A DNA stretch of 30,400 bases from an uncultured Gammaproteobacteria bacterium (GTDB lineage Bacteria; Patescibacteriota; Microgenomatia; Daviesbacterales; UBA10151), in contig CAYHYM010000009.1 of assembly GCA_964360965.1 (NCBI GenBank), positions 1-30,400 on the forward strand, written 5' to 3'. The notes beneath the pieces were generated by a model. That model ran no database searches, was not told the DNA's origin, and saw nothing but the letters and a program-made list of their open reading frames with translations. Numbering within the stretch: position 1 is the stretch's first letter; every line of letters begins with the position of its first letter. A program made the position numbers and the translations under genes. This document shows positions 8,620 through 28,195 of this stretch, in pieces.

Positions 8620-8621
8620 CT

Positions 8622-8673: not shown

Positions 8674-8681
8674 GGCATTTT

Positions 8682-8936
8682 ATGTCTTGGTATGTCTACA
8701 TTGCAAAAGCAAAAACAGGTAGATACTACACCGGTATCACCACAAATCCAAATAAAAGAATTATTAAACATAACTCAGGTAAAGGTTCAAGGTTTGCCAT
8801 AGAACAAGGTCCACTTGAACTGGTCTATATCTCCAAAGCATTTCCAGACAAATCAAAAGCAAGAAAACGGGAAATTCAAATCAAAGGTTGGTCAAGAGAA
8901 AAGAAATTAAAACTAATAAGCGGAGTGTGGAAGTAA
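8682..8936 (+). CDS. GIY-YIG nuclease superfamily protein (YhbQ/UPF0213-like)
   Basis: WYVYIAK..GRYYTGITTNPNKRIIKHN...KREIQIKGWSREKK, the typical stand-alone GIY-YIG layout (84 aa). Confidence 0.75.
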   Translation: MSWYVYIAKAKTGRYYTGITTNPNKRIIKHNSGKGSRFAIEQGPLELVYISKAFPDKSKARKREIQIKGWSREKKLKLISGVWK

Positions 8937-13354: not shown

Positions 13355-14671
13355 TCATAGTAGCGCTTCCTTATTCCTTAGTTTTCTATGGAAAGTTAAG
13401 GCAAACCTGTGAGCTTCATCACGCAATTTTTGCAAAAGCTGCAAACTTAAGGATTTTTTGGAAAGTTTTATAATTCGAGCCTTGCGAGAATTACTCAGCG
13501 AAATTCGAGCCTTGCGAGAATTACTCAGTGAAGCGCTAATTTCTCCCTCCGGGGGATAGAGCCATTCCCTTCTTTTGGCCAGACCGAAGATGGGTAGATT
13601 GTGATTAGTAGTTTGTAGTTCGTAGTTTACCGCATTAACTTGTCCCTTGCCACCATCTACTATTATCAGATTAGGGATAGGCCAATCTTTGTGTTTTAAC
13701 CTTCTTCTGATCACTTCTCTCATCATTGCTACATCATTAGGTTTGCCGCTGAGGCGAATCTTAAATTTTCTATACTGTGATTTATCAATATCTCCCTCAT
13801 TTAAAACCACCATTGAACCTGTGGCATTTTTCCCTCCAATATTGGAGATATCATATCCTTCTATTCTTAAAGGTAAAGTTTTTAGATTTAAAACTTTTTT
13901 CAGCTCCTGCAGGGCCAAATTTTTTTGATCTTCGAAAAAATTAGAATTCTCCAAATAAGCCTGGACATTGTTTGGTTGAGTGAGATAATTTATTCCGTCT
14001 ATGATTTTTTTAAGTTTACTTGCTTCTTCAAACTTCTCTCTCTCTGATAGCTTTAACATATCCATTGTCAGTTCCTCAATTAATTTATCCTTTTTCCCGT
14101 CCATAAATTTTGAGAATCGGTTGATTATTTTGTTATAGTCTTCCTTGGAAATTAGCCCAACACAAACTCCTGGACATAATCCCAGATGATGATAAAAACA
14201 TGCTCGACGGGTTCGCAAGGCCAGGCCTTGCGAGGCTGAACACCAAGGGAAGACTTTCCTGAGTAGTTTGAGGGTGTTCCTAACAGTTCTAGCTGAAGGA
14301 AAAGGGCCAAAGAATTTTTTTACCCTTCTCAAATCTTGTTTTCTAAGAGTAATAACTTTGGGAAATTCTTCTTTGGTGATACCAATATATAAATAATCCT
14401 TATCATCTGTTAGTCTGACATTATATTTTGGCAAGTATTTTTTAATAAGACTCGCCTCTAAGATAAGCGCTTCCAACTCTGATGCAACAACAATAGTTTC
14501 AACTGAAGATATTGCAGAAGATAACATGGCTGTCTTTGCGCTCAGACCGAATCGGTTGCTGCGTGAAAAATATGAAGATATCCGATGGTATAAATTTATG
14601 GCTTTACCCACATAAATTACCTGACCATCTTTATTTTTAAAAATATATACCCCGGGTTTTTTGGGAAACAT
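13355..14671 (-). CDS. uvrC: excinuclease ABC subunit C, short form without (HhH)2 domain
   Basis: N-terminal GIY-YIG (PGVYIFKNKDGQVIYVGKA..LYHRISSYF), a UVR-like helix pair (EREKFEEASKLKKIIDGI), IEGYDISNIGG and RDEAHRFAL. The ORF stops about 20 aa after the last motif. Confidence 0.85.
   Translation of the reverse strand: MFPKKPGVYIFKNKDGQVIYVGKAINLYHRISSYFSRSNRFGLSAKTAMLSSAISSVETIVVASELEALILEASLIKKYLPKYNVRLTDDKDYLYIGITKEEFPKVITLRKQDLRRVKKFFGPFPSARTVRNTLKLLRKVFPWCSASQGLALRTRRACFYHHLGLCPGVCVGLISKEDYNKIINRFSKFMDGKKDKLIEELTMDMLKLSEREKFEEASKLKKIIDGINYLTQPNNVQAYLENSNFFEDQKNLALQELKKVLNLKTLPLRIEGYDISNIGGKNATGSMVVLNEGDIDKSQYRKFKIRLSGKPNDVAMMREVIRRRLKHKDWPIPNLIIVDGGKGQVNAVNYELQTTNHNLPIFGLAKRREWLYPPEGEISASLSNSRKARISLSNSRKARIIKLSKKSLSLQLLQKLRDEAHRFALTFHRKLRNKEALL
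13472..13531. repeat. 2 x 30-nt tandem duplication inside uvrC
   Basis: AATTCGAGCCTTGCGAGAATTACTCAG(C/T)GA twice, 29/30 identical. Encodes SLSNSRKARI twice. Confidence 0.85.
14203..14238. repeat. GC-rich palindrome inside uvrC
   Basis: CGCAAGGCC-A-GGCCTTGCG (14214-14232). Shares the GCCTTGCGAG core with the tandem unit at 13472-13531. Encodes ASQGLALRTR. Confidence 0.6.
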
Positions 14672-14673: not shown

Positions 14674-16665
14674 TTATTTATTCGAAGCAGGTTTTGCAAA
14701 ACGCCTTCTGTAGATAAGTGTTCCTAAAATGGCAAAGTATAAAACTGCCACCACTGCCACGAGTCCCAATGCAATCCAGGGAAAATTCTGTAGGATGAAA
14801 AATGGCCTGACCTTTATCTCATGTCGTTCCTTTATTCCTGCCACCTGAATCTCAATAACATCATCAAAGCTATCCAAAAGAGATTTAGTTCTGAGTTCAA
14901 ATTCAAACTGGGCAAATCCAAAGGAAGGTATTGGACCAGATTGGACAGCAGCCCCATTTAAAATGTTGACCTGTCCGGCATTGACAGATAAGTTTGATGA
15001 CGGAAGAGCGGCATTTCCCAAATTTTCTATTTTTATATTAATTTTATGGGGAAATCCTGCCAAAATTTGCTTTTTTACATCAATGATTAAATTGGGCTGC
15101 GGCTTTCCCAAAAAATCACTTTGTGATAGCTCCACTTTGACATCATGGCTGTCCATCCCGCTCAATTTATATGAGCCGGCAGGAACAGGCTGCTCTGATG
15201 ATGAACCTTTGATAACAAATACAAAATGATTTAAATCCAGCTTATTAAAATAATCAACTCCACCAGTGGTGTTTTGCCAGGTTGGATCAACCATTACCCA
15301 ACCTCGATTATCATCCCAATACTCAGGCCAGGCATGTAAAATGTCGCGAGACAAAGACAGCGGCCGCAACGCAAGATTGGTGGTATAGGCAAATCCGTCC
15401 AGCTCCCTGGCAGGGATCCCGGCAGCCCGGGTTAAGCTGATAAAAAGATCGGTAAATTCCATACAAACAGCAGAGGTTGGGTTATTTAAGGCTGTAACAG
15501 CGCCCAACCTTTCAATATTTTCATTGGAGAGCCTGGAAGTATCATATTGTAAAGTAGATATCACACTCTGATAAATTAGTTTTACCTTTTGCTCTGTTGA
15601 AGAGGGCTGATTAGTACTTAAGATTTCACTTAGTTTACTTTTAACTGTCGGGTGATCTTTTTCCCAATATTTTTGAGTGGTAGTATATTTTTGATAAAGA
15701 CCGGTCGGTAAGACTGGGTTTTTCACTTTTGTTAAGATATAAAGCTTGGCTGATCCGGTGGCCTTAACAGATAACTTTTGGGCTCTTTTCAGTTTATACC
15801 AGGCAAGATAATTACCATCCTCATCTAAAGTCACATTAATCGGCTTTGGCTCAATTCGCTGATAAATCACCTCCTGATAGGCTGTATCCGGAGGCAGGGC
15901 AATATTGGTGAGAACCGGTACCAGATTGGGATTTTCCAAATTATATGTCAAATTAAAATCATAAACTTGAAAACTGCCAAAAGTGGCGGAAACACCTGAT
16001 AATATCAACTGGTCTTTGTCAAATATTAAAAAGGTCCTGCCGGATGAGGTACTCTGTCGTTTTGGGGTGGGACTGATAATGGAAGGCGGACCAAAGCTTT
16101 GAGGAGTGGAAATTGTCAAATTATAACTTTGAAGACCGGGCGCTGATTGAATTTTGGGAGCGGATATTTCCCAGATTTTACCTAAATGCTGGGCAAAATC
16201 AGATGATTTAAAACTAAGGGTAAAAGGCTGCTCTTTTCCTACTCCCGCTATCTGCTGGTTAAACTTAACTGTGATAGAAGTTGAGGTATCTTTTTGCTCT
16301 GATGTCACCTCCATTAAGCCTCCTTGGTCTGAGGCTTTGATATCGGTAATTTGGGTGGCTCCAATAATAAGTTTAAACTGGCTGGCAAAATATTGACTGG
16401 TTAGATTCCTGAGGGTAATTTTTTCAGTAACTGAAGTTATTCCACTTAAGTCTATATCATAAGTTACATCATATGAGGTGGCAAAATCTTGTCCTGAGCT
16501 AGCTTGCCCTGAGCCTGTCGTACTTCGATTCCACTCAGTACGACCCTGAGTGTTAATCGAATGGGTCGAAGGGGTCGAAGGATCTTCGGCAGCAAAGACA
16601 GCAGTCAGTGAAAAGTAAAAAGTAAAAATTGAAAATATAACAGCCAGGAAAATTTTCTTGATCAT
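14674..16665 (-). CDS. transglutaminase-like cysteine-protease-fold surface protein
   Basis: Cys-His-Asp pattern: AVCMEFTDLF, ILHAWPEYW, WVMVDPTW. N-terminal signal peptide MIKKIFLAVIFSIFTFYFSLTAVFA and a C-terminal TM span. The ORF-track start at 16695 is possible but adds 10 non-signal residues. Confidence 0.75.
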   Translation of the reverse strand: MIKKIFLAVIFSIFTFYFSLTAVFAAEDPSTPSTHSINTQGRTEWNRSTTGSGQASSGQDFATSYDVTYDIDLSGITSVTEKITLRNLTSQYFASQFKLIIGATQITDIKASDQGGLMEVTSEQKDTSTSITVKFNQQIAGVGKEQPFTLSFKSSDFAQHLGKIWEISAPKIQSAPGLQSYNLTISTPQSFGPPSIISPTPKRQSTSSGRTFLIFDKDQLILSGVSATFGSFQVYDFNLTYNLENPNLVPVLTNIALPPDTAYQEVIYQRIEPKPINVTLDEDGNYLAWYKLKRAQKLSVKATGSAKLYILTKVKNPVLPTGLYQKYTTTQKYWEKDHPTVKSKLSEILSTNQPSSTEQKVKLIYQSVISTLQYDTSRLSNENIERLGAVTALNNPTSAVCMEFTDLFISLTRAAGIPARELDGFAYTTNLALRPLSLSRDILHAWPEYWDDNRGWVMVDPTWQNTTGGVDYFNKLDLNHFVFVIKGSSSEQPVPAGSYKLSGMDSHDVKVELSQSDFLGKPQPNLIIDVKKQILAGFPHKINIKIENLGNAALPSSNLSVNAGQVNILNGAAVQSGPIPSFGFAQFEFELRTKSLLDSFDDVIEIQVAGIKERHEIKVRPFFILQNFPWIALGLVAVVAVLYFAILGTLIYRRRFAKPASNK
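16491..16590. repeat. GC-rich composite element (CCTGAGC / GGTCGAAGG family) in frame near the N-terminus of the transglutaminase-like gene
   Basis: Contains CCTGAGC x3, GGGTCGAAGGGGTCGAAGG and the hairpin GTCGTAC-N14-GTACGAC. Encodes PSTPSTHSINTQGRTEWNRSTTGSGQASSGQD. Confidence 0.6.
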
Positions 16666-16749
16666 AATGTCATCCCAGAGAATACCGGGATCCATAAATA
16701 TTGTAGCAATTTTATTATGTCATTGCTAGCGAATGATGGAAAGCTAAAA

Positions 16750-16782
16750 TTTAGCTTGACACCTGAGAGGTGTAAACGTAAA
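16750..16782 (+). repeat. REP-like element upstream of the RAYT ORF
   Basis: TTTAGCTTGACACCTGAGAGGTGTAAACGTAAA with hairpin ACACCT-GAG-AGGTGT at 16759-16773. Exact inverted copy at 26126-26158. Confidence 0.85.
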
Positions 16783-16791
16783 ATAAATTTA

Positions 16792-17448
16792 ATGCCTGGA
16801 AGAAAAACTGTTTTTGAGAATGGATATTTTTATCATGTCTATAACCGGGGCTCTGAAAAAAGGGATATTTTTATAAAACCGCAAAATTATCAAAGATTCA
16901 TAAAAACTATGTACTATTATCAGTACGAGGGACCAAAACTAAGGCTTTCCCTACTAAATCAGGACGGATTCCAAAATTTTAAACCGGATCCCAGTAAGAA
17001 ATTAGTTGAAATTATCTGTTATTGCTTAATGCCTAACCACTTTCACATTCTAATAAAACAACTCAAAGAAAATGGAATTTCTAAATTTATTAGTCAATTA
17101 AGTAATAGCTACACCAAATATTTTAATACCAAATATAAACGTGTAGGAGCTTTATTCCAGGGTGTATTTCAGGCAGTTATTATTGAATCCGATGAACAGT
17201 TCATTCATACCTCCAGATATATTCATTTAAACCCGTCAGTATCAACCTTGGTAGAGAACCCTGCCAATTGGCCTTGGTCCTCTTATACCGAGTATGTTGA
17301 TAAGAAAAAGGGTATTTGTGTTAAAGAACCAATAATGAGTCATTTTCCTTCTGTGGAAGCTTACAAAAAATTTGTCTTGGATCAGCTTGATTACGGGAGG
17401 ATTCTCGAAATCTTAAAACACGGAGCCATTGATTATGATTACACCTGA
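16792..17448 (+). CDS. IS200/IS605-type Y1 (HUH) transposase, REP-associated tyrosine transposase (RAYT)-like
   Basis: YHVYNRG, the HUH motif MPNHFHILIK, and the catalytic-Tyr motif SRYIHLNP. Start set to ATG 16792, because the upstream TTG extension is made of REP sequence. The TGA stop lies inside a REP hairpin. Confidence 0.8.
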   Translation: MPGRKTVFENGYFYHVYNRGSEKRDIFIKPQNYQRFIKTMYYYQYEGPKLRLSLLNQDGFQNFKPDPSKKLVEIICYCLMPNHFHILIKQLKENGISKFISQLSNSYTKYFNTKYKRVGALFQGVFQAVIIESDEQFIHTSRYIHLNPSVSTLVENPANWPWSSYTEYVDKKKGICVKEPIMSHFPSVEAYKKFVLDQLDYGRILEILKHGAIDYDYT

Positions 17449-17457
17449 GAGGTGTAA
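17441..17457 (+). repeat. REP-like hairpin overlapping the RAYT stop codon
   Basis: ACACCTGAGAGGTGTAA is identical over 17 nt to 16759-16775 and in the same orientation. Confidence 0.8.
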
Positions 17458-17560
17458 GCCTCACACAAACTACTTCCGATCGAAAACAACTTGTCATGCG
17501 TACAGGCACATAAGGTCTCACCTTAGTTCAACGGTCGTGTTAACAATGTGATAAGTCCGT

Positions 17561-17579
17561 GCTGACACCTGAAAGATGG
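17561..17579 (+). repeat. degenerate REP-like copy
   Basis: GCTGACACCTGAAAGATGG compared with GCTTGACACCTGAGAGGTG. The second arm is decayed. Confidence 0.4.
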
Positions 17580-17589
17580 AAAGGTAAAT

Positions 17590-18177
17590 TTACCTTCTGA
17601 TTTTTTTTAGAATATGTGAAGCTAATCGAGTTAAGTCTCCAGCCAATAAGAATGCATGAATTCTAAGAACTTCTGCTAAGGTAGGTGTGAGTTCCTTTCT
17701 ATTCTCTCCCAACATTTCACCTAGTAGTTCGCTATCATAATAATACTGCTCACTGCGTACTCTTTCATAATCCACTCCATAGCCCGCTGCCTCCATTAAA
17801 TCAATAATCAGCAGACCTGGTAAGGGTAAACTTTCTGCCCAAGTATTAATAACCTCTTTGGGTGGAATAGTTTCAGTTTCACCATTTGCTCCCATTAAAT
17901 TCCATAACAACTCCAACTTTCCCTCTCCAATTCTTCTATCATGTTCTGCCAGAAATTCTTGATGTAATCCCCATATGGTAAGAACCGCCTCTTTAAAAAA
18001 GTCGGGAGTACCTATACTTGCCGCCAAAGAAGGATCACTCACTCTTCCTATTAAATAACGTTCCTTTACTTCTTCTGGAAATATTGAATGTTCAATTGAA
18101 TAAATAAATATTCGGTTGTGAAGTTCTATATATTTATCCCTAGCCAGCTGAAGCTGTTTAGAAATTTGTTCTTTCAT
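17590..18177 (-). CDS. hypothetical protein, apparently co-transcribed with uvrA
   Basis: 195-aa ORF whose ATG (18177) lies 2 nt after the uvrA stop (18180-18182). Helical and acidic, with no motif recognised. Confidence 0.5.
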   Translation of the reverse strand: MKEQISKQLQLARDKYIELHNRIFIYSIEHSIFPEEVKERYLIGRVSDPSLAASIGTPDFFKEAVLTIWGLHQEFLAEHDRRIGEGKLELLWNLMGANGETETIPPKEVINTWAESLPLPGLLIIDLMEAAGYGVDYERVRSEQYYYDSELLGEMLGENRKELTPTLAEVLRIHAFLLAGDLTRLASHILKKIRR

Positions 18178-18179: not shown

Positions 18180-21100
18180 TTATAGTATCTTTGCCAAATA
18201 TTGCCCTGTATAGGAGGATTTGATTTTGGATATATCTTTGGGGGTGCCTTCTGCAATAACTTGTCCGCCTTTATCCCCACCTTCCGGGCCTAAATCTATT
18301 ACCCAATCGGTATTTTTAATCACATCAAGATTGTGCTCTATAATCACCACAGTATTTCCATAGTTTACCAGCTTCCTTAAGATGGTTAATAACCTTTCTA
18401 TATCAGCAAAATGTAAACCGGTGGTGGGTTCGTCCAAAATATAAAGAGTGTGACCAGTTGGACGCTTAGATAATTCAGCAGAAAGTTTAATCCTTTGTGC
18501 CTCTCCACCAGACAGCGTGGGAGCTGGTTGGCCCAATTTTATATATCCCAATCCCACATCATTTAGTACTTGCAGTTTATTTTTGATATTGGGAATATTT
18601 TCAAAAAACTTTAAAGCTTCCTCAACAGTCATGTCCAAAACTTCAGAAATATTTTTATCCTTAAAGTGAATTTCCAAAGCCTCCCTGTTGTAGCGGGCAC
18701 CGTTGCAAGCCTCACAAGTCACATAAACATCCGGCAAAAACTGCATTTCAATTTTGAGCTGCCCTTCCCCTTCACAAACCTCACACCTTCCACCTTTGAC
18801 ATTAAAGGAAAACCTGCCTGGTCCATAACCCCTAATTTTAGCTTCAGTACTTTGGGCAAATAGGTCTCTGACAAAGGTAAAGGCTTCTGTATAGGTGGCC
18901 GGATTTGAGCGGGGAGTCCGGCCTATTGGTGATTGGTCTACCAAAACCACTTTATCCACATACTCTACCCCCTCCAGTTCTTTAAAAGCCCCTGGTCTTT
19001 CCTTGGATCTATAAATTTTTTGAGCTAACGCCTTATATAAGATGTCGTGAATTAAAGTAGATTTTCCGGATCCTGAAACCCCTGATATGGCTATAAACTG
19101 CCCTAAAGGAAAATCCACATTGATATTTTTTAAATTGTGTTGAGAAGCACCAAGAACCTTCAAAACATGATTGTCATTCCCGCGCAGGTCATCGACTCCG
19201 AGGTCGCTCAGACTCGAGGAGCGGGAATCTATTTTAATATTATTTATGGATCCCGTATCCCTTCGGCCTCGCTCAGGGCGGGCAAGTTCAGGATGACCGT
19301 GAACAGTCACTTTTTTCTTACCTGATAAATACTGTCCAGTTAAAGATGTAGTACTTTTTTTAATCTGATCCGGAGTGCCTGTGGTTACTATCTCCCCACC
19401 ATGTTCACCAGCTCCTGGCCCAATTTCAATTAATAGATCTGCATTCTCCATCATCTCTGCATCATGCTCATTAACTATCACTGTATTTCCCAAATCTCTT
19501 AATTTTTTTAAAGTTTCAATTAATCTTGAGTTATCTCTTTGGTGTAAACCAATAGAAGGCTCATCTAAAACATACAAAACTCCGGATAAACCCGAACCAA
19601 TTTGGGAGGCCAGCCTGATTCTTTGTGATTCTCCCCCGGCTAAGGTCATAGCAGCGCGATCCAGCGTTAAATAATCCAAACCAACATCAATTAAGAACTT
19701 AACTCTGGCTTGGATTTCTTTTAAAATAGGTTTGGCAATTTGAGTTTCACGATCATTTAAAATAGATTCTATCACTTCACTACGTTTCGCTCCAGAATGA
19801 CTATTCCCCAATCTTTTAATCCATTCCAAAGCCTCTTTAATAGATTGTGTCACCACTTCTGCAATATTTAATCCATCAATGGTTATTGACAAGGCTTCAT
19901 CTTTAAGTCTTGCTCCATGACACTTAGGACAAATCTCTTTAACCATATATTTTTCTATTTCCCTTTTCACATAATCAGATTCGGATTCTTGATATCTTTG
20001 TTTTAGGTATGAAACCAAACCTTGAAAGCTAGATTTAAAATGAGTCCATCTTCCCTCTCTGTTTCTTCCTTCCACTCTAAATTCTTCGTCCCCAGCACCA
20101 TTAAGTAGCACATTTCTGGCTTTCTCAGATAATTCACCCAGTCTGGTATTTAAATCAAAACCGTAAACTTTGCCTACTGACTGAATAAGTCTTGAGAACC
20201 AGGTTTCATGAGTGGCTAACTTTTGCCATGGTAAAATTCCACCTTCTGCAATAGATAAAATGGGGTTTAAAACCATTTCCGGATCAATTTCCAAAAGTGA
20301 TCCTAAACCATGGCAGGTAGGACAAGCTCCATGAGGAGAATTAAAAGAAAATAGTCTTGGTTCCACCTCGGATAAGGCAATATTGTCAACCGGACAGGCA
20401 AATCTTTCAGAATAAAGATGATCGTCCATTTTCTTGGGATTTTGGGGAAATTCTAAAGAAGCGTCCAGGACTTCAGAAACAATCACGGATCCTTCACCTA
20501 ATTTGAGCGCTGTCTCGATGGATTGGGAGAGCCTGTTTATAATGTCATTCCCGCGCATGCGGGAATCCAATTCCGAACGTGACTTTGTTAATTGGATCCT
20601 CCTCGAGTCTGAGCGACCTCGGAGTCGAAGACCTGCCTTCGCAGGGATAACAGACTTATCCAATATGAGTCTGTCCACTACTGCATCGATAGTATGCTTA
20701 TTAGTTTTAATCAACACTAAATCCCCCGCTCCGCCCGCGCCCGCTTCGCCGCGCCCTGCGTCGCCGGAGGCGCGAGGCGAGGAGCGAGGCGAGTCTGTTA
20801 AGTCTCTAATTTGTCCATCAACCCTAACCTTTGAAAAACCTTTTTTCCTCAAATCTTCAAAAAGTTGGAAATATTCTCCTTTTCTGTCTTTAACCACAGG
20901 AGCCAAAATCATTATTCTTCTCGAAGACCCTGAGCGAGACTTCGACGGTGAGTCTTTCGACCCTGAGCTCAAGACCGAAGGGCTCAGTCGAACCGCGTAG
21001 CGAGTCGAAGGGTTCCCTACCACTTGTTCCACAATTTGTTCTACTGACATTCTACTAATCTCCCTTCCACAAATTGGACAATGGGGATGGCCAACCCTGG

Positions 21101-21443
21101 CAAATAAAAGCCTTAAATAATCATAGACCTCAGTAGTTGTTCCCACAGTAGAACGTGGATTATGTGAAACACCTTTTTGGTCAATAGAGATGGCCGGGGA
21201 TAAACCCTCAATATAATCAACATCAGGCTTGTCCATTACCCCTAAAAACTGCCTGGCATAAGCAGATAAAGATTCCACATATCTTCTTTGACCTTCTGCA
21301 TAAAGGGTATCAAAAGATAAAGAAGACTTGCCGGAACCGGAAATCCCCGTTAAAACCACCAACTTGTTCTTGGGAATTTCCAGATCAATATTCTTGAGGT
21401 TATGCTCTCTCGCCCCTTTTATAATAATCTTATCTATAGCCAT
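18180..21443 (-). CDS. uvrA: excinuclease ABC subunit A, expanded by in-frame insertions
   Basis: GISGSGKSSL and GVSGSGKSTL Walker A motifs. Two LSGGE signatures (LAGGESQRIRLA, LSGGEAQRIKLS). Zinc modules CPxC...CxxCxG. 1087 aa. Confidence 0.95.
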   Translation of the reverse strand: MAIDKIIIKGAREHNLKNIDLEIPKNKLVVLTGISGSGKSSLSFDTLYAEGQRRYVESLSAYARQFLGVMDKPDVDYIEGLSPAISIDQKGVSHNPRSTVGTTTEVYDYLRLLFARVGHPHCPICGREISRMSVEQIVEQVVGNPSTRYAVRLSPSVLSSGSKDSPSKSRSGSSRRIMILAPVVKDRKGEYFQLFEDLRKKGFSKVRVDGQIRDLTDSPRSSPRASGDAGRGEAGAGGAGDLVLIKTNKHTIDAVVDRLILDKSVIPAKAGLRLRGRSDSRRIQLTKSRSELDSRMRGNDIINRLSQSIETALKLGEGSVIVSEVLDASLEFPQNPKKMDDHLYSERFACPVDNIALSEVEPRLFSFNSPHGACPTCHGLGSLLEIDPEMVLNPILSIAEGGILPWQKLATHETWFSRLIQSVGKVYGFDLNTRLGELSEKARNVLLNGAGDEEFRVEGRNREGRWTHFKSSFQGLVSYLKQRYQESESDYVKREIEKYMVKEICPKCHGARLKDEALSITIDGLNIAEVVTQSIKEALEWIKRLGNSHSGAKRSEVIESILNDRETQIAKPILKEIQARVKFLIDVGLDYLTLDRAAMTLAGGESQRIRLASQIGSGLSGVLYVLDEPSIGLHQRDNSRLIETLKKLRDLGNTVIVNEHDAEMMENADLLIEIGPGAGEHGGEIVTTGTPDQIKKSTTSLTGQYLSGKKKVTVHGHPELARPERGRRDTGSINNIKIDSRSSSLSDLGVDDLRGNDNHVLKVLGASQHNLKNINVDFPLGQFIAISGVSGSGKSTLIHDILYKALAQKIYRSKERPGAFKELEGVEYVDKVVLVDQSPIGRTPRSNPATYTEAFTFVRDLFAQSTEAKIRGYGPGRFSFNVKGGRCEVCEGEGQLKIEMQFLPDVYVTCEACNGARYNREALEIHFKDKNISEVLDMTVEEALKFFENIPNIKNKLQVLNDVGLGYIKLGQPAPTLSGGEAQRIKLSAELSKRPTGHTLYILDEPTTGLHFADIERLLTILRKLVNYGNTVVIIEHNLDVIKNTDWVIDLGPEGGDKGGQVIAEGTPKDISKIKSSYTGQYLAKIL
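19173..19297. mobile_element. TIR MITE-like element in uvrA with nested insertions
   Basis: The GTCATTCCCGCGCAG..GCGGGAATC end is split by a 33-nt element at 19188-19220. The GGATCC..TCAGGATGAC end contains a CTGAGCG/CCGAAGG-type segment at about 19254-19287. Confidence 0.65.
20544..20651. mobile_element. TIR MITE-like element in uvrA with one nested 33-nt insertion
   Basis: Intact end GTCATTCCCGCGCATGCGGGAATCCAATT. The other end, ATTGGATCC|CTGCCTTCGCAGGGATAAC, is split by TCCTCGAGTCTGAGCGACCTCGGAGTCGAAGAC (20600-20632). 108 nt, 36 codons. Confidence 0.75.
20723..20793. repeat. GC-rich element (SPRSSPR..GEAGAGGAG family) in frame in uvrA
   Basis: Reverse complement is CTCGCCTCGCTCCTCGCCTCGCG + 21 extra nt + GCGAAGCGGGCGCGGGCGGAGCGGGGG. 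The 23-nt and 26-nt blocks are identical to 6052-6100. Confidence 0.8.
20920..21013. repeat. GC-rich composite element (CCTGAGC / GTCGAAGG family) in frame in uvrA
   Basis: Contains CCCTGAGCGAGAC, CCCTGAGCTCAAGACCGAAGGGCTCAG and GCGAGTCGAAGGG. Encodes about 30 residues (STRYAVRLSPSVLSSGSKDSPSKSRSGSS) where canonical UvrA has a short linker. Confidence 0.65.
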
Positions 21444-21461
21444 AGTTTATAATCCCTTCGG

Positions 21462-21571
21462 GTCCGAGCTCTTCGAGTCCGAGCTCTTCGAGTCCGAGCC
21501 TCAGAGTCGAGGACCTCAGAGTCGAGGACCTCAGGGTCGAAGACCTGAGCGACCGAAGGGAGTCGAAGGAC
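21462..21571. repeat. GC-rich ~15-nt-period tandem array in the uvrA 5' region
   Basis: Units all start GTC(C)GA: GTCCGAGCTCTTCGA x2, GTCCGAGCCTCAGA, GTCGAGGACCTCAGA, GTCGAGGACCTCAGG, GTCGAAGACCTGAGCGACCGAAGGGA, GTCGAAGGAC. Confidence 0.8.
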
Positions 21572-21682
21572 ACTAAAATTACCGCACTATTGTAAACCAT
21601 TTTGCAAGATTTTTAAAGGATTAATATGTTAAAATCTGTTCAAAATGAAGATAGAACAATATTTACTACAGAATCCAATACT

Positions 21683-21724
21683 TTAAATACTTAATTCCTT
21701 AATCTGATCTCTTAATCTGGCCGC
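21683..21724 (-). pseudogene. recoded duplicate of the uvrB 3' end (13 codons + stop)
   Basis: Encodes AARLRDQIKELSI*, identical to the uvrB C-terminus at 21759-21800. It has 9 nucleotide differences, all synonymous. It is out of frame with uvrB and lies behind stop codons. Confidence 0.7.
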
Positions 21725-21758
21725 CCAACGGGCGAGCCTCGCCTTAGATTAGCTACTT

Positions 21759-23771
21759 TTAAATACTTAACTCTTTTATTTGATCTCTAAGGCGGGCTGC
21801 TTCTTCAAAATCTAATATTTCTGCTGCTTGGTGCATTTGTTCCTCTAAATTTCCGATCATTTTCTGCCTCTCATTAACTGGTATATCTTCTATAGTTAAT
21901 TCTTTTTTACCCAATTTTTCCTCTATTTCTTCAACTTTCTCAATAAGTCTTTCCCTCAAAGCTTTTTCAATGCTTCTGGGTTTTATGTTATGCTTTTTAT
22001 TATATTCCATCTGGTACTTTCTTCTTCTGTCTACCTCCTCAATTGCTGACTTCATAGATTTGGTCATATTATCTGCATACATAATTACTTGCCCCTTAAC
22101 ATGTCTGGCAGCCCTGCCCATGGTTTGGATCAAAGAAGTTTTGCTTCTTAAAAAACCCTCTTTATCCGCATCCAAAATAATTACCAAAGTTACTTCAGGC
22201 AAATCCAATCCTTCCCTTAAAAGATTAATTCCCACAATCACATCATATTCACCTAATCTTAAAGACTGGAGAATATCAGATCTTTTTAAAGTTTCTATAT
22301 CAGAATGTAAGTAATTTACTTTAATGCCTCTCTCTTTTAGATAATCAGTCAAATCTTCTGCCATTCTTTTGGTAAGTGTAATAATTAGCACCCGTTCTCT
22401 ACGTTCCACCCTTTTTTCCACCTCAGAAATGATATCCTGAATCTGTCCTTGTGTAGGTCTGACAGAAACTTGAGGATCAAAAATGCCTGTAGGTCTGATA
22501 AGCTGCTCTGCTATCCCACACCCGGTGTGGGTTTGAGTTGACACACCGGGTGTGTGTCCTGAACAGGCCAAACTTATCTCATACTCATCCGGAGTTGCTG
22601 AAGCATAAATTACCTGATTAATTTTTCTCTGAAACTCATCAAATCTTAAGGGTCTATTATCCAAAGCAGAAGGAAGCCTGAAACCAAACTCAATCAAAGT
22701 TTCTTTTCTGGAACGGTCTCCGTTGTACATCCCACGCAGTTGGGGCAAAGTGATGTGGGACTCATCAATAATCAATAAAAAATCTTCAGGAAAATATTCC
22801 ATTAAAGTATACGGAGGGTCACCTTCTTTTCTGCCTTCAAAATATCTGGAATAATTTTCTATCCCATTACAATAACCGAATTCCTTAATCATCTCCAGAT
22901 CATAATAAGTTCTTTGTTCCAGTCTCTGAGCTTCTACTAATTTGCCTTGTTTTCTTAAATCTTTAATCCTAAATCTTAAATCTTCTTCTATTTGTTTTAT
23001 AGCAGGCAACATTCTGGACTCCGGAGTAATATAGTGTTTGGCAGGATAGATGGTTAAGGTTTGAGGGGTTGGGGTAGCAACACCAGTCAAAGGATCCAAG
23101 TGCGAAATTCTCTCTATCTTATCTCCTAAAAATTCTACTCTGACAGCTTGTTCCAAATAAGCAGGGAAAATATCTATAGTGTCTCCCTTAACTCTGTAGG
23201 TAGATCTTTTAAAATCCAAGTCATTTCTTGAATAAAACATCTTTTGAAGCATTTTAAGAATCGTCTGGAAACCTGTTCTTACCCCCATCTTTAGCTCTAA
23301 AATTGCCCCGCCATATTCAGCGGGAGATCCCAAATTGTAGATACAAGAAACTGAGGCGACCACTATCACATCTTTTCTGGTCATTAAAGAAGTCGTTGCA
23401 GAAAGGCGCAATTTTTCTATCTCTTCATTAATATTGGTCTCTTTTTCAATATATGTATCTGATTGGGGTACATAAGCCTCAGGCTGATAATAATCATAAT
23501 AAGATACAAAATACTCGCAAGCATTTTTGGGAAATAAAGACCTAAATTCTTGAGCTAGCTGTCCTGCTAAAGTTTTATTGTGGGAAATAACCAAAGTGGG
23601 TCTTTGCACTTTCTGGATCACATTGGCCATGGTAAAGGTTTTACCGGATCCAGTCACACCCAGTAGTACCTGATGTTCTTGTCCAGAATTAAGCCCGGAA
23701 ACAAGCTTCTCAATAGCTTGAGGTTGGTCACCTGTAGGTTTGAATTCAGAAATAATCTTAAATTTTGCCAT
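21759..23771 (-). CDS. uvrB: excinuclease ABC subunit B
   Basis: FKPTGDQPQAI, Walker A GVTGSGKTFT, DESH box (IIDESHITLPQ), helicase motifs, and a C-terminal UVR domain (LDFEEAARLRDQIKEL). Start set to ATG 23771 (MAKFKIISEFKP). The track start at 23780 is a TTG. Confidence 0.95.
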   Translation of the reverse strand: MAKFKIISEFKPTGDQPQAIEKLVSGLNSGQEHQVLLGVTGSGKTFTMANVIQKVQRPTLVISHNKTLAGQLAQEFRSLFPKNACEYFVSYYDYYQPEAYVPQSDTYIEKETNINEEIEKLRLSATTSLMTRKDVIVVASVSCIYNLGSPAEYGGAILELKMGVRTGFQTILKMLQKMFYSRNDLDFKRSTYRVKGDTIDIFPAYLEQAVRVEFLGDKIERISHLDPLTGVATPTPQTLTIYPAKHYITPESRMLPAIKQIEEDLRFRIKDLRKQGKLVEAQRLEQRTYYDLEMIKEFGYCNGIENYSRYFEGRKEGDPPYTLMEYFPEDFLLIIDESHITLPQLRGMYNGDRSRKETLIEFGFRLPSALDNRPLRFDEFQRKINQVIYASATPDEYEISLACSGHTPGVSTQTHTGCGIAEQLIRPTGIFDPQVSVRPTQGQIQDIISEVEKRVERRERVLIITLTKRMAEDLTDYLKERGIKVNYLHSDIETLKRSDILQSLRLGEYDVIVGINLLREGLDLPEVTLVIILDADKEGFLRSKTSLIQTMGRAARHVKGQVIMYADNMTKSMKSAIEEVDRRRKYQMEYNKKHNIKPRSIEKALRERLIEKVEEIEEKLGKKELTIEDIPVNERQKMIGNLEEQMHQAAEILDFEEAARLRDQIKELSI
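22515..22558. repeat. pair of REP-like hairpins inside uvrB
   Basis: CCCACAC-CCG-GTGTGGG (22515-22531) and TTGACACAC-CGG-GTGTGTGTC (22538-22558). Encodes SGHTPGVSTQTHTGCG in frame. Confidence 0.7.
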
Positions 23772-25688: not shown

Positions 25689-26366
25689 ATGCTATACATT
25701 ATTCCCACTCCCATAGGTAATTTAAAAGATATCACTTTAAGAGCACTTGAAGTTTTAAAAGAGGTGGATTCTATAATTTGTGAAGACACCAGAAGAACTG
25801 GATTACTTCTTAATCATTACCAGATTAAAAAGCCTCTTTTGGTATTGAACGATTACAACGAAGCAAAAATCCTGGATTCCACTATAGAGCGGCTCAGAGC
25901 TGGAGAGAATCTTGCTTTAGTGTCTGATGCAGGTACCCCACTTATTTCTGATCCAGGATATAAACTGGTCAGAGAGTGTTTCCACCAGGGGATTCCGGTT
26001 GATTCCCTCCCGGGTCCTTCTTCTGTTATCACAGCTTTAACACTTTCCGGTCTTCCTCCTGATAAATTTTTATTTCTAGGATATTTACCGGAAAAGCTTG
26101 GTCACAGAAAAACTTTACTAGAAACTTTACGTTTACACCTCTCAGGTGTCAAGCTAAACCCAACTTATATTTTATATATAGCTCCCCATAAACTGATCAA
26201 AACTCTCGCTGAGATGAAAGAAGTTTTTGGGGATATTGAAGTAGTTTTAGCCCATGAATTAACTAAAATCCATCAAAGTGTGGAAAAGAAAAAAATAAGT
26301 GAATGGCTGGAAACATTAAAAAATCCAAAGGGAGAGTATATATTACTATTCAACAAGGGGTGGTAA
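25689..26366 (+). CDS. rsmI: 16S rRNA (cytidine1402-2'-O)-methyltransferase
   Basis: LYIIPTPIGNLKDITLRALEVL, IICEDTRRTG, VSDAGTPLISDPG. Carries a 33-nt REP insertion in frame. Confidence 0.85.
   Translation: MLYIIPTPIGNLKDITLRALEVLKEVDSIICEDTRRTGLLLNHYQIKKPLLVLNDYNEAKILDSTIERLRAGENLALVSDAGTPLISDPGYKLVRECFHQGIPVDSLPGPSSVITALTLSGLPPDKFLFLGYLPEKLGHRKTLLETLRLHLSGVKLNPTYILYIAPHKLIKTLAEMKEVFGDIEVVLAHELTKIHQSVEKKKISEWLETLKNPKGEYILLFNKGW
26126..26158 (-). repeat. REP-like element, 11 in-frame codons inside rsmI
   Basis: TTTACGTTTACACCTCTCAGGTGTCAAGCTAAA is the exact reverse complement of 16750-16782 (33/33). Confidence 0.9.
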
Positions 26367-26666: not shown

Positions 26667-28195
26667 ATACTTTTCCTTAGTATAACTCTATTTTCTGCAT
26701 TATACAACAAATCTTTTGCACTATTTGCCTCATATCTTTCCACCACCACCCCATAAACTCCCCTCTCCACCAAAAATTCCAACACTTCAGGATATAAAGC
26801 CAAACTTCCATAAGTTATAAACGGTATCTTAGATTTATGTAATAGTTTTAACCCATCCTCCATAAATTTTAATAAACCACTCACTTCGTTTTTGTAAAAC
26901 ATCAAATCCTCCTGTGTGGTGTCGAATCCATTTAAATGAGCTATCAGTTCATCCAGGTTTAACACCACTCCATCCAAACCAGCTACCAGATAATCCTCCA
27001 AATTAACAATATTTTCCGGTACAGCTACTTCCAGCCAAAGCTGTAAGGAGTTTTTTCTGGACAACTTTTTAACAGCCAGTTCTCTTTTAATTTGTAAAAA
27101 CTCCCCAACTCCTCTAACAAACGGAATAACTATGTGAATATTATTTATGCCTTTTTTAAGACTGCCATCTGGCAGTCGCAATTTATGCTTATGCCTTATA
27201 AAATCAGCTGCATCCACCATGGGCTGGAAAAGACTCTGTTGATGCAAAAGCCTTAATGTCCCCCTGACTTTACCCATCCCCTCTGATTTATCAGCCAGTT
27301 TAAATAAAATGGGAGAACTTGGAAAAGTTGCGGCAGATTCCACCAATCTAAAAACCAAATCCTCAAAAGAATCTCTTACGTTATTTAGATCAAATATTTT
27401 CTCAGAAGCAATATAGATTCCATCAACTGCCCTTTCCACTACCAATCCCGTAGATAAATCCAAAAAGACTTTCACGGCACTTAATACCTTAGGTGTCCTA
27501 TCTGGACCACCTCCCAGGTGTATGTCCACACCGGGTGTGTGGTAGCTTGACACCCCGGGGTGGGTATAGGGCTTAATTCCAACAATTTTAACTCCCCTAT
27601 CAACAATCCATTCATACTGATGAGGTATAAACAACTTTTTATTAGCTTCTCTGACTATCTCATCCAATTTTTTCAAATCATTAGGAGCAAGTTTCCCCCA
27701 TTTGACATTAATCACAGTATCATCCAGTATGGGATCAAAATAAGCTAACCCTAAGCTCCCTACCTTTTTTACAAAAGTTACCACCTGAGGCTCCAAATTC
27801 TCTGTAATGCCCTGATAAAAACCCTCTTTCCAAAGTCTAGCTTTAGTCTGTTCCAGCCATAACTCAAGAAGCGTAAGCCAAAGATTTTTGATGGATTTAA
27901 TCTGTACTCCATTTAATAAGAAATGGTTGTGGTTGCCAACCTCTTTTTTCAAAATTACAGGGATAGGTGTGGAATTTATTTCTTTTTTTACCAGGGTTAA
28001 GCTTTGCTCAAAAATTTCCTTTGATCCAAAATCGTAATGCTCAAGGATTGTTTTAAGATGTAAATCAGGCGGGGTAACCACTATTCCTGCTCCCACCGGC
28101 AAGATTGTCCGTGCCAGTTTCCCCAAAGCCACATTTAACTGGCCAAAAATTGGGAAATCTTCATCCAGTAAAACTTTTATGGGCAGAATCTCCAT
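26663..28195 (-). CDS. PEP-utilising-enzyme (PpsA/PPDK TIM-barrel)-like protein
   Basis: HIVIPFVRGVGEFLQIKREL and LWLEVAVPENI...AGLDGVVLNLDELIAHLNGFD resemble the PEP-utilising TIM-barrel blocks. Carries a cluster of three REP-like hairpins in frame. Confidence 0.45.
   Translation of the reverse strand: MEILPIKVLLDEDFPIFGQLNVALGKLARTILPVGAGIVVTPPDLHLKTILEHYDFGSKEIFEQSLTLVKKEINSTPIPVILKKEVGNHNHFLLNGVQIKSIKNLWLTLLELWLEQTKARLWKEGFYQGITENLEPQVVTFVKKVGSLGLAYFDPILDDTVINVKWGKLAPNDLKKLDEIVREANKKLFIPHQYEWIVDRGVKIVGIKPYTHPGVSSYHTPGVDIHLGGGPDRTPKVLSAVKVFLDLSTGLVVERAVDGIYIASEKIFDLNNVRDSFEDLVFRLVESAATFPSSPILFKLADKSEGMGKVRGTLRLLHQQSLFQPMVDAADFIRHKHKLRLPDGSLKKGINNIHIVIPFVRGVGEFLQIKRELAVKKLSRKNSLQLWLEVAVPENIVNLEDYLVAGLDGVVLNLDELIAHLNGFDTTQEDLMFYKNEVSGLLKFMEDGLKLLHKSKIPFITYGSLALYPEVLEFLVERGVYGVVVERYEANSAKDLLYNAENRVILRKSI
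27508..27562. repeat. cluster of three REP-like hairpins inside the PEP-enzyme-like gene
   Basis: CACCT-CCC-AGGTG (27508-27520), CACAC-CGG-GTGTG (27527-27539), and GCTTGA-CACCCCGGGGTG (27545-27562). Encodes HPGVSSYHTPGVDIHLGGG. Confidence 0.7.

Follow-up and report, generated by a model that had tools for sequence, protein, structure and literature searches.

We analysed a stretch of 30,400 nt (the window; contig CAYHYM010000009.1 of assembly GCA_964360965.1, positions 1 to 30,400) from an uncultured CPR bacterium, Candidatus Daviesbacteria, which contains a cluster of DNA-repair genes. One of them, uvrA, is an intact ORF of 1087 aa. The Pfam families UvrA_inter and UvrA_DNA-bind match the protein, UvrA entries of the PDB were hit with E = 0, and the Walker and Zn-binding residues are invariant in the alignment of orthologues. 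The following features of uvrA and its surroundings are referred to below (hs, hotspot; families A to D are the repeat families defined in this study):

18180-21443 (minus strand): uvrA, carrying five inserts
20920-21012 (minus strand): hs1, a composite (PSTRYAVRLSPSVLSSGSKDSPSKSRSGSS) with an outer shell CCTTCGACTCGCTA..CGCTCAGGGTCTTCGAG, a family-D element nested inside it, and a further filler of about 30 nt nested inside that
20724-20792 (minus strand): hs2, a 69-nt GC-rich family-C hairpin (SPRSSPRASGDAGRGEAGAGGAG) with a 20-nt filler at its centre
20544-20651 (minus strand): hs3, an inverted pair of NTS/dRS3-like hairpins (family A), with module B nested in one of the hairpins
20599-20632 (minus strand): module B copy 1 (34 nt, read as LRLRGRSDSRR; nhmmer E = 1e-14)
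19761-19805 (minus strand): hs4, a 45-nt AT-richer insert (NSHSGAKRSEVIESI), probably a decayed GTCATTCTGGAGCGAA..GATAGAATC hairpin
19173-19297 (minus strand): hs5, a family-A composite with module B in one hairpin loop and another filler in the other (HPELARPERGRRDTGSINNIKIDSRSSSLSDLGVDDLRGND)
19188-19221 (plus strand): module B copy 2 (34 nt, read on the gene strand as SSSLSDLGVDD; nhmmer E = 3e-14)
21450-21572 (no strand assigned): intergenic B-like palindromic array of 15-nt tandem units directly upstream of the uvrA start codon (E = 0.006)

In-frame insertions in uvrA

The original prediction stated that uvrA carries about five in-frame, GC-rich repeat insertions, and it had named alignment to orthologues and mapping onto UvrA structures as the way to test this. 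A codon alignment with the closest orthologues, found at loci L001 (80% identity) and L002 and L003 (both 78%) of other assemblies, revealed five net insertions in the gene of the window, of 57 nt (hs1), 69 nt (hs2), 90 nt (hs3), 45 nt (hs4) and 99 nt (hs5). This amounts to 360 nt or 120 aa, and all five are multiples of three and free of stop codons. The observation is therefore real, and the positions proposed for the segments were correct to within 1-2 nt. The GC content of hs1 to hs5 is 0.60, 0.84, 0.55, 0.36 and 0.54, respectively, compared to 0.39 for the rest of the gene. Thus four segments are GC-rich, while hs4, which had been considered the weakest, is a true insertion but is not GC-rich. 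L001 has no insertion at hs1 and a different element at the same codon as hs3, whereas the outer shell of hs1 is also present in L002 and L003. Insertion at hs2 is clean.

To localize the inserts in the protein, we compared the insertion points to solved UvrA structures. Hs1 lies between residues 166 and 168 of Mtb UvrA, hs2 between residues 211 and 214 and hs3 between residues 232 and 235 of solved UvrA (9gxk series), and hs5 lies in the linker between Mtb UvrA residues 636 and 647. Hs1 to hs3 are in three turns of the UvrB-binding domain, hs4 in a variable loop, and hs5 in the linker between the two ATPase modules. The original prediction that the segments lie where canonical UvrA has short linkers is supported, as solved UvrA structures have turns of 2-3 residues or a linker at these positions. 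In the AlphaFold model the inserts are coil with the lowest pLDDT, but this model is poor overall (mean pLDDT 55), and these data leave it undecided whether the positions are at the surface or otherwise permissive. Ser, Arg and Gly together make up 48% of the insert residues, against 21% in the rest of the protein.

Considering that the sequence stems from a metagenome, repeats could have misled the assembler and produced chimeras, and an assembly artefact had been named in advance as an observation that would speak against the prediction. The uvrA contig occurs once in the protein database, and uvrA itself was seen in only one assembly. However, an independent assembly reproduces positions 1503-7765 of the window, including three inserts, at 99.97% identity over 6.3 kb. 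L002 and L003, which are from two different assemblies, carry the same hs1 element, every insert preserves the frame, and the same kind of insert is seen in hundreds of orthologues from many projects. We therefore regard an artefact as very improbable.

Insertions in other genes of the window

In agreement with the original prediction, dinB, uvrB and uvrC also carry inserts. The following inserts were found in other genes:

3957-4047 (minus strand): dinB insert 1, a family-A inverted hairpin pair (SVIPANAGIQ...LDPRLRGDD), about 23 extra aa compared to DinB of the PDB; confirmed in the independent assembly
4273-4308 (minus strand): dinB insert 2, a GC-rich hairpin (PASPDERASRGG; GC 0.81)
6052-6100 (plus strand): family-C copy in frame in ORF 4904-6397, which encodes a secreted protein (SPRSSPRGEAGAGGAG); confirmed in the independent assembly
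22515-22553 (minus strand): uvrB insert, a pair of ACACC..GGTGT hairpins (HTPGVSTQTHTGC), +39 nt compared to L002
13475-13540 (minus strand): uvrC insert, 66 nt made of a 30-nt tandem duplication and not a dispersed repeat
16489-16584 (minus strand): insert of 96 nt with TTCGAC/GCTCAGG motifs in a transglutaminase-like gene
27158-27190 (minus strand): insert of 33 nt, a hairpin, in the gene for a PEP-utilising enzyme; a second small indel (about +18 nt net) lies at about 27497-27526

The idea that the inserts are particularly linked to DNA-repair or TLS genes is not supported. The window is simply a repair-gene cluster, and non-repair genes within it are hit as well. In other genomes module B is found in TopA, PolA, QueA, PBP2, a pseudouridine synthase and an oxidoreductase. 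The phenomenon is also not confined to CPR bacteria, since a MutS2 of Zixibacteria carries the same kind of insert, while orthologues with 92% identity lack it.

Most uvrA inserts are copies of dispersed repeats

In order to test whether the segments are repeated, which had been specified beforehand as a condition for the prediction to hold, we compared them to the rest of the window and to other genomes. Hs2 matches 6052-6100 (30 nt and 23 nt at 100%). Hs3 and hs5 share a 38-nt stretch at 97%, and hs3 matches dinB at 4016-4045 (E values from 1e-14 to 1e-5). Hs1 has only matches of 10-12 nt inside the window, but clear relatives in other genomes (L002, L078; copies also in L103 and L108). A 62-nt composite of family A and module B in L036 is 98% identical to hs5. 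Hs4 shares both termini with a hairpin in a Curtissbacteria locus (L032), which is weaker support. The claim that each segment belongs to a family seen elsewhere in the window thus holds for three of the five only, but membership in a dispersed repeat family is supported for hs1, hs2, hs3 and hs5.

An alternative view is that the segments are lineage-specific loops that grew locally by replication slippage or duplication of GC-rich sequence. The uvrC insert is a plain 30-nt tandem duplication for which no other copy was found, hs4 has no strong dispersed relative, hs1 and hs2 fold no better than shuffled sequence, and a 15-nt tandem array lies upstream of uvrA. Against this stand identical stretches of 30-38 nt at unlinked loci, the wide distribution of module B, the 62-nt composite in another genome, and the clean empty sites in close orthologues. 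The dispersed copies refute local growth for hs1, hs2, hs3 and hs5, and as an overall explanation we consider it unlikely.

Module B has sharp edges and a per-position identity of 96-100% over 113 copies. It was found in more than 116 stretches in genomes labelled as many CPR lineages, Zixibacteria and TA06. It lies in frame inside TopA, DinB, PolA, QueA, PBP2 and others, in five of its six frames; the sixth frame contains TGA. No transposase recurs near module B copies. A rule that module B inserts at the apex of a hairpin holds for only about 10% of copies and fails a general folding test.

Elements are often nested. The empty NTS-like hairpin has 20 nt, while filled versions have 47, 50, 50, 53 and 53 nt. 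Family C in uvrA equals the copy at 6052-6100 plus 20 nt at its centre, and family D in the window equals the L078 copy plus about 30 nt.

To test whether the inserts are palindromic, we compared their folding to that of shuffled sequences. Family A in dinB (insert 1) and the uvrB pair both gave z = -5.3, the intergenic array -3.2, hs5 -2.7, the transglutaminase insert -2.6 and hs3 -2.4, while hs1, hs2 and hs4 were not significant, so that the inserts taken as a group are not settled as palindromic by this criterion. Family A has terminal inverted repeats with arms of about 29 nt in dinB and in hs3. No target-site duplications flank the family-A copies in dinB, hs3 or hs5, and no clear insertion signature was seen at family-A sites.

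The insertion sites are hotspots

We next examined the five sites in 120 UvrA orthologues. They are occupied in 10, 10, 37, 18 and 18 sequences for hs1 to hs5, respectively, by different peptides. At hs2, shorter SPRGEAG-type versions were found in 9 orthologues, and at hs4 18-21 orthologues carry other elements. The number of parsimony changes is about the number of occupied taxa, as in shuffled data, and hence there is no phylogenetic signal. DinB shows the same pattern, with the site of insert 1 being a hotspot in 27 of 120 orthologues.

These data bear on the possibility that the embedded hairpins are kept for a function and are not merely tolerated, e.g., as recognition sites for Ssn-like ssDNA nucleases that shape recombination of incoming DNA within core genes, or as modulators of the UvrA-UvrB contact. 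Family A matches the NTS, which controls integration of transforming DNA in Neisseria (PMC11893778), and three inserts lie in the UvrB-binding domain. CPR bacteria are thought to rely on DNA uptake. However, inserts at a given site differ in sequence and are absent in most orthologues, and the host genes are functionally diverse. A comparison of genic and intergenic positions, which had been suggested as a check, showed that module B copies are depleted in ORFs (31% against 63% for random positions), the pattern expected of mildly harmful passengers. We consider a retained function unlikely.

Association with small nuclease and transposase genes

Two further genes of the window are candidates for an involvement in the spread of the repeats:

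8682-8936 (plus strand): gene for an 84-aa single-domain GIY-YIG nuclease, a candidate partner of the TTCGACTCGC-type repeats
8618-8681 (plus strand): palindromic element between tRNA-Lys and the GIY-YIG gene (CTCTTCGACTCGCAC..GCTCGCTCAGAGTAAACTCGAGTCGAAGGG)
16717-17448 (plus strand): RAYT-like Y1 transposase gene (true start probably near 16793), with ACACCTGAGAGGTGT hairpins at 16750-16782, 17441-17469 and 17565-17593, and a further copy at 26126-26158

The sequence at 20543-20570 in hs3 matches 25 of 28 positions of the published Neisseria NTS consensus (CGTCATTCCCGCGMAVGCGGGAATCYRG), with 0 such matches expected by chance, and an exact dRS3 is located at 20547-20566. Such hairpins were shown to be cognate sites of Ssn ssDNA nucleases (PMC11893778). 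We found no mention of in-frame copies in coding sequences in a text search of that paper.

The small nuclease matches Pfam GIY-YIG with E = 3e-18, and its closest PDB entry is the UPF0213 protein 1ZG2 (E = 4e-16); a search of NCBIfam gave no hit, and 295 relatives were found in metagenomes. The protein is thus UPF0213-like; its assignment to the Ssn clade or to cd10448 (GIY-YIG_unchar_3) was not examined, nuclease activity is not known for it, and cleavage of ssDNA near the hairpin was not assayed. Near homologous genes, the TTCGACTCG motif occurs at 3.9 per kb upstream against 0.11 per kb elsewhere, a 35-fold enrichment. The 24-mer of the hs1 element as it stands in L002 and L003 (CTTCGACTCGCTAYGCTCGCTCAG) lies next to small GIY-YIG genes in 31 of 80 related loci, and a related copy, whose core motif recurs in hs1, is found upstream of the gene in this window. 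This element is family D-like and not NTS-like. The motif is enriched on the upstream side only, so it could be a gene-specific leader, and the data do not decide whether the gene is flanked by a cognate repeat as in the Ssn system.

The RAYT-like gene was recognized by Y1_Tnp (E = 2e-9), and its best match is REP-associated tyrosine transposase, but the NCBIfam model REP_Tyr_transpos scores only 59 bits, below the cut-off of 80. ACACCTGAGAGGTGT hairpins lie on both sides of the gene, which is syntenic in L002; the question of a genuine RAYT gene flanked by its REPs is left undecided. The hairpin family (ACACC..GGTGT) explains only the uvrB and PEP-utilising-enzyme inserts. Neither gene, nor the nesting, the hotspots or the NTS/dRS3 identity of family A, was part of the original prediction.

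Discussion

Our data support the view that uvrA is a working gene into which short, non-autonomous, hairpin-forming repeats have been inserted at the DNA level, often one inside another. At least four families are involved: family A, an NTS/dRS3-like hairpin pair; module B of 34 nt; family C, a GC-rich hairpin; and family D, the CTTCGACTCGC...GCTCAG element. The interpretation given in the original prediction is partly supported: the segments are copies of dispersed mini-repeats and not lineage-specific domains, they maintain the reading frame, the host is a CPR bacterium and the analogy to Rickettsia is apt, but the preference for repair genes is not supported.

In this view most insertions in a gene-dense genome would land in genes, and the only ones to persist would be those that add a multiple of three nucleotides, carry no stop codon in the host frame, and fall in permissive surface turns or linkers. 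The survivors are most likely read through by the ribosome and appear as Ser/Arg/Gly-rich, probably disordered loops. Existing elements may themselves attract new ones, so that a few sites become hotspots that turn over quickly between lineages. The most likely agents of spread are enzymes acting on single-stranded DNA whose genes are flanked by the same kinds of hairpin: Ssn-type GIY-YIG nucleases for the NTS-like family, a UPF0213-like GIY-YIG gene for family D and a RAYT-like gene for the ACACC..GGTGT family. While the insertions, their repeat nature, nesting and frame preservation, the hotspots, the broad distribution and the association of genes with repeats rest on direct observation, translation of the inserts, their tolerance as loops, and above all the enzyme and mechanism of insertion are inferred. 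We hold this explanation with good confidence.

The inserts could instead be present in the DNA but absent from the mature protein, by removal from the mRNA or bypassing by the ribosome. Several inserts can form stable hairpins, and as no expression data exist, translation is inferred only from frame preservation. However, removal would leave length and stop codons unconstrained, yet all of the 10 inserts measured by codon alignment in this window are multiples of three and open in the host frame; by chance the length alone would occur with a probability of about (1/3)^10. No Rfam family, including introns and ribozymes, matches at any insert, and with 15-43 aa the segments are too small for inteins or group I/II introns. 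We consider removal or bypass unlikely.

REP/REPIN sequences with their RAYT (Y1) transposases are likewise short GC-rich hairpins that occur as inverted pairs. REPs are extragenic by definition, however, whereas the copies considered here are inside ORFs, and the conserved 5' GTAG/GTGG of classical REPs is not present. Intragenic MITEs (Coxiella QMITE1/2, enterobacterial RU/ERIC; PMC5896051, PMC2759123) are also non-autonomous repeats with terminal inverted repeats that can fuse in frame with host ORFs, and QMITE2 is shared between distant taxa and is itself a target for further insertion (by IS1111). The elements described here are smaller and modular, no target-site duplications were seen, and no cognate IS was identified.

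The closest parallel are the Rickettsia palindromic elements (RPEs; Ogata et al. 2000, as reviewed in PMC10969869), which are dispersed palindromic repeats compatible with the fold of the host protein. Like the repeats described here, they are inserted in frame into unrelated housekeeping genes of a small-genome, host-dependent bacterium; for the inserts described here, compatibility with the fold is inferred, and only some of them fold better than shuffled sequence. The modules described here are much shorter (21-108 nt against about 100-150 bp; sequence homology to RPE-1 to RPE-10 was not examined), belong to several unrelated families that nest inside one another, and reach a very high density, with five in one gene and at least 13 intragenic inserts in 30 kb. 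Furthermore, the same sites are re-used by different families in orthologues, and one module is shared across many CPR lineages and Zixibacteria. Our data suggest that such selfish repeats, as RPE-like in-frame elements that are probably translated as disordered loops, build protein loops in many genes and phyla, and not only in Rickettsia.

The Daviesbacteria uvrA Gene Carries Five In-Frame Insertions

The complete 30.4-kb contig has a GC content of 38%. Its uvrA gene (18180-21443, minus strand) is an intact ORF that encodes a UvrA protein of 1087 aa and matches Pfam UvrA_inter, UvrA_DNA-bind and ABC_tran. Solved UvrA structures match at E = 0, but each alignment breaks into four blocks. The 120 best homologues are Candidatus Daviesbacteria or Microgenomates proteins, and most of these are about 961-970 aa long, with a tail up to 1038 aa. 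The neighbourhood (uvrB, uvrA, transglutaminase-like gene, uvrC, holin, solute-binding protein) is syntenic with two relatives, the loci L001 and L002/L003, which carry the closest orthologues.

The original prediction had proposed that GC-rich segments interrupt this gene in frame at about five positions, and had named an alignment to orthologues as the way to verify this. A codon alignment with the closest orthologues (80% and 78% identity) revealed five net insertions of 57, 69, 90, 45 and 99 nt, 120 codons in all. The predicted insertions are therefore real, and the coordinates proposed for them are accurate. Four segments are GC-rich (0.54-0.84, against 0.39 for the rest of the gene), while the fourth (hotspot 4, 19761-19805) is a real insertion with a GC content of only 0.36. 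Ser, Arg and Gly make up 48% of the inserted residues, against 21% elsewhere in the protein. Eleven per cent of this UvrA is repeat-derived.

The Insertions Are Dispersed and Often Nested Repeats

The absence of further copies had been stated beforehand as a finding that would refute the repeat nature of the segments. We searched for copies in the contig and in other genomes. The features needed to follow the comparison are:

20724-20792, hotspot 2 in uvrA
6052-6100, matching copy inside the unrelated ORF 4904-6397
20543-20570, family-A hairpin in uvrA
19761-19805, hotspot 4 in uvrA

Hotspot 2 matches 6052-6100 over 30 nt and 23 nt at 100%, both copies are read in the same frame (SPRSSPR..GEAGAGGAG), and the uvrA copy has 20 extra nt at the centre of the hairpin. 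Hotspots 3 and 5 are inverted pairs of a hairpin, TGTCATTCCCGCG-N-CGCGGGAATCCA (family A), which also occurs as a clean 81-nt pair in dinB with a folding z-score of -5.3. Each of the two uvrA family-A copies carries a 34-nt module (module B) in one hairpin loop, and the two B copies are 97% identical over 38 nt. Hotspot 1 has three layers. The outer shell is also present in uvrA of L002/L003 and is absent from L001; inside it is an element with copies in L078, a locus of another genome, and inside that is a further piece of about 30 nt with copies in the loci L103 and L108. Hotspot 4 shares both termini with a short hairpin in a Curtissbacteria locus, which is weaker evidence.

Empty family-A hairpins are 20 nt long, while filled ones, in this window and in four other genomes (L025 5695-5744, L078 6694-6740, L096 5945-5994 and L036 6188-6240), are 47, 50, 50, 53 and 53 nt long. 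The fillers thus add 27, 30, 30, 33 and 33 nt, all multiples of three, even where no long ORF covers them. This may mean that frame-neutral length is intrinsic to the modules, but the sample is too small to conclude. Our first impression was that module B always sits in the loop of a host hairpin. Perfect adjacent stems were, however, found in only about 10% of the copies (2% in controls), and a folding test of the rejoined flanks showed no enrichment of hairpin-loop junctions, so that this was rejected as a general rule, although it does hold for both uvrA copies.

Module B Is Present in Many Lineages

The central 20-mer of module B hits more than 116 stretches of species-representative genomes, a number that is a minimum. 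The records are labelled as many CPR lineages (Saccharibacteria, Peribacteria/Peregrinibacteria, Curtiss-, Woese-, Davies-, Levyi-, Berkel-, Uhr-, Kuenen-, Moran- and Wildermuthbacteria, and CPR2), as several Zixibacteria MAGs from different projects, and as TA06 and others. Some of these labels are unreliable. The MAG GCA_964396715.1 (L003 and L078) is labelled 'uncultured Gammaproteobacteria' but is plainly a Daviesbacteria: it encodes the same UvrA protein as the Daviesbacteria-type locus L002 and shares its synteny. Several such third-party-assembly labels among the module B hits are probably wrong.

Over 113 copies the unit GTC[T/A]TCGACTCCGAGGTCGCTCAGACTCGAGGAG has sharp edges, and the 14 positions not fixed by the search are 81-99% identical (all but one at 96% or more). 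A comparison of genic with intergenic copies had been asked for in advance; for module B, about a third of the copies lie inside long ORFs, against 63% of random positions. The copies use five of the six frames, and the sixth contains TGA. Pfam confirms hosts such as TopA, DinB, PolA, QueA, PBP2, a pseudouridine synthase, an oxidoreductase and a succinyl-CoA-synthetase-like protein. To look for an autonomous partner, we clustered the ORFs from 116 loci with B copies, but found only housekeeping families and no recurrent transposase. The 20-mer is absent from 2.9 million viral contigs, and there is thus no support for a phage vector.

Insertions Are Not Restricted to Repair Genes or to CPR Bacteria

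The original prediction also emphasized the density of the elements in DNA-repair genes and the CPR-like host. Its interpretation is only partly supported: the segments are copies of dispersed repeats that keep the frame, but specificity for repair genes is rejected and the elements are not confined to CPR bacteria. In this window, in-frame inserts also occur in the following genes:

uvrB, +39 nt, a pair of ACACC..GGTGT hairpins
uvrC, +66 nt, a tandem duplication
dinB, two inserts
a transglutaminase-like gene, +96 nt
a PEP-utilising enzyme
ORF 4904-6397

The perfect-frame tandem duplication of 30 nt in uvrC (13472-13531; SLSNSRKARI, twice) has no other copy anywhere; it is a local duplication, not a dispersed element. 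L002 has its own, different GC-rich inserts in uvrB and in the PEP-utilising enzyme. A second peculiarity of uvrB is seen at 21682-21800, where the last 13 codons (AARLRDQIKELSI, stop) occur twice, 76 nt apart and 79% identical, separated by a GC-rich hairpin (GGCGAGGCTCGCCCGTTGGGCGGCC). It looks as if an insertion near the 3' end displaced or duplicated the end of the gene, and L002 has a similar orphan UVR fragment after a Y1 gene. Outside CPR bacteria, a Zixibacteria MutS2 (locus L066, position 5324) carries a 35-aa in-frame composite (PFDKL.., module B, ..VEGS). Among the orthologous proteins compared (P0241-P0250), those at 92% identity lack it, and one at 80% identity has a different element at the same site.

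The Same Sites Are Occupied by Different Elements in UvrA Orthologues

In 120 UvrA orthologues, the same five sites carry at least 5 extra residues in 10, 10, 37, 18 and 18 sequences. The peptides fall into several unrelated repeat types: VIPAKAGIQ..RGND, VIASEAKQS..IASS..PRND, VILSAAKNIYPSAWPQDDRK, HTPGVS.., SPRGEAG and HPELV... On a neighbour-joining tree of the core alignment, the number of parsimony changes is about equal to the number of occupied taxa, as in shuffled data. Occupancy is therefore recent and lineage-specific, or turns over fast. DinB shows the same behaviour. Empty-site alleles at the population level were not searched for, because the closest UvrA among 5.8 billion database proteins is only 80% identical.

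Mapping of the insertion points on solved structures, also suggested at the outset, placed the sites between Mtb UvrA residues 166 and 168, and residues 211/214 and 232/235 of the 9gxk-series structures (all in the UvrB-binding domain), and in the linker between residues 636 and 647. An AlphaFold2 model from a 36-sequence alignment was poor (mean pLDDT 55) and was used only to note that the inserts are predicted as coil, with pLDDT 25-32; no fold search was run on it. Whether these positions lie at the surface is not decided by the model.

Assembly Artefacts and Excision

Assembly artefacts had been named as a result that would invalidate the observation. An independent ENA assembly is 99.97% identical to window 1503-7765 and reproduces both dinB inserts and the insert in ORF 4904-6397. 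L002 and L003, from two different assemblies, share the hotspot-1 element. The inserts could also be present in the DNA but removed from the RNA or bypassed during translation. However, all of the 10 inserts measured by codon alignment in the window are multiples of three and open in frame, which would be unnecessary in that case, and no Rfam family matches them. An Rfam E-value scan of the window found only tRNAs. Translation, for example into peptides such as ...SRSGSSRRIMILAPVVK or ...LRGNDNHVLK that cross the junctions, is therefore the favoured reading, but it rests on inference.

 A 103-nt unit is present twice at 99% identity (6817-6919 and 8352-8454), one copy upstream of tRNA-His and one upstream of tRNA-Arg. 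It contains a TTGACA-type promoter-like site, a hairpin, and a GC hairpin followed by a T-run that looks like a terminator, and represents a candidate small RNA gene in two copies. Rfam gives only a weak, sub-threshold RNAI-like hit for it.

Repeat Families Are Associated with Small Nuclease and Transposase Genes

In order to get an idea of the enzymes that might act on these repeats, we compared them with known hairpin families. Family A at 20543-20570 matches the published Neisseria NTS consensus at 25/28 positions, with none expected by chance, and contains an exact dRS3. NTS-type hairpins are the cognate sites of Ssn nucleases, single-domain GIY-YIG ssDNA nucleases whose genes are flanked by such repeats, and the repeats are most abundant in symbionts (PMC11893778). 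The candidate genes in the window are:

8682-8936, 84-aa single-domain GIY-YIG protein
16717-17448, RAYT-like Y1 transposase gene

The closest solved relative of the GIY-YIG protein is the UPF0213 protein 1ZG2, and the metagenome collection holds 295 relatives of its gene. A palindromic element, CTCTTCGACTCGC...GCTCGCTCAGAGTAAACTCGAGTCGAAGGG, lies directly upstream of it. In 80 metagenomic loci with homologues of this gene (L121-L200), the 9-mer TTCGACTCG/CGAGTCGAA occurs at 3.9 per kb in the 130 nt upstream, against 0.11 per kb in the rest of the loci. The 24-mer CTTCGACTCGCTAYGCTCGCTCAG lies next to the gene in 31 loci; it is the hotspot-1 element as it stands in L002/L003 uvrA, and its left and right ends flank the nested layers in the window gene. 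The arrangement tRNA, palindromic element, 84-aa GIY-YIG gene (window 8547-8936) is conserved, and in several homologous loci (for example L125, L159, L160) the element starts right after a tRNA 3' end. Module B shares sub-motifs with this element, but its profile gives no significant hit there, so that B is not shown to be the repeat of this gene. No nuclease activity is known for the GIY-YIG protein.

The RAYT-like Y1 gene is flanked by ACACCTGAGAGGTGT hairpins (16717-17593) and accounts for a third hairpin family, the one seen in uvrB. A 33-nt perfect inverted copy of the hairpin lies 9.3 kb away (26126-26158). The gene sits at the same position in L002, which also has a second Y1 gene next to uvrB (L002 13732-14397 and 7385-8059).

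Discussion

Our data demonstrate insertion of dispersed, nested repeats at the DNA level, which keep the frame at recurrent, probably permissive sites, and an association of two repeat families with small nuclease genes and of one with a Y1 gene. What we infer from this is a selection filter for length (3n), absence of stops and loop position, translation into disordered loops, attraction of further elements by existing ones, so that hotspots sustain themselves, and mobilisation by enzymes that act on ssDNA hairpins. A classical MITE model is not favoured, since no target-site duplication was seen.

In-frame palindromic repeats are known from Rickettsia (RPEs), and intragenic MITEs from Coxiella and the enterobacteria (PMC10969869, PMC5896051, PMC2759123). 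In the literature searched, we found no report of them in CPR bacteria, and searches for the peptide motifs, for the DNA sequences, and for CPR together with MITEs or palindromic elements gave nothing relevant. A text search of the Ssn paper (PMC11893778) also found no mention of in-frame copies. New are the host range, the density, the nesting, the hotspot turnover, the 34-nt module found across many lineages, and the pairing of one family with a UPF0213-like GIY-YIG gene.

A more far-reaching view, which our data do not rule out but which we consider unlikely, is that the inserts are the recognition hairpins of small enzymes acting on single-stranded DNA (Ssn-like or UPF0213-like GIY-YIG nucleases, and RAYTs), which have colonised the coding sequences of core genes in CPR bacteria and in unrelated sediment and groundwater phyla. 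They would include a minimal module (34 nt conserved, 33 nt net) that is frame-neutral and shared across phyla. Such modules would drive variation in protein loops, and they might let the nucleases cut incoming or replicating single-stranded DNA inside core genes, including repair genes, which would make them a previously unrecognised layer of control over recombination.

The inserts also have consequences for annotation. They inflate protein lengths, break domain models (Pfam UvrA_inter is split here), and can mislead annotation and homology searches in CPR genomes. The GC-rich inserts create a spurious 188-aa antisense ORF inside uvrA (20434-21000, plus strand), and hairpin elements supply false N-terminal extensions to the transglutaminase ORF (16659-16716; MDPGILWDDI) and to the Y1 ORF (16717-16791).

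The finding extends the RPE phenomenon of selfish repeats inside protein-coding genes from Rickettsia to CPR bacteria and to Zixibacteria, and at far higher density. It also gives a concrete candidate agent, since the inserted repeats include an NTS-like hairpin, the known substrate class of the Ssn ssDNA nucleases described in 2025, as well as the repeat that sits next to a different small GIY-YIG gene. The recurrent hotspots mark probably permissive loops in UvrA and DinB, and offer a natural system for asking how new disordered protein segments arise.
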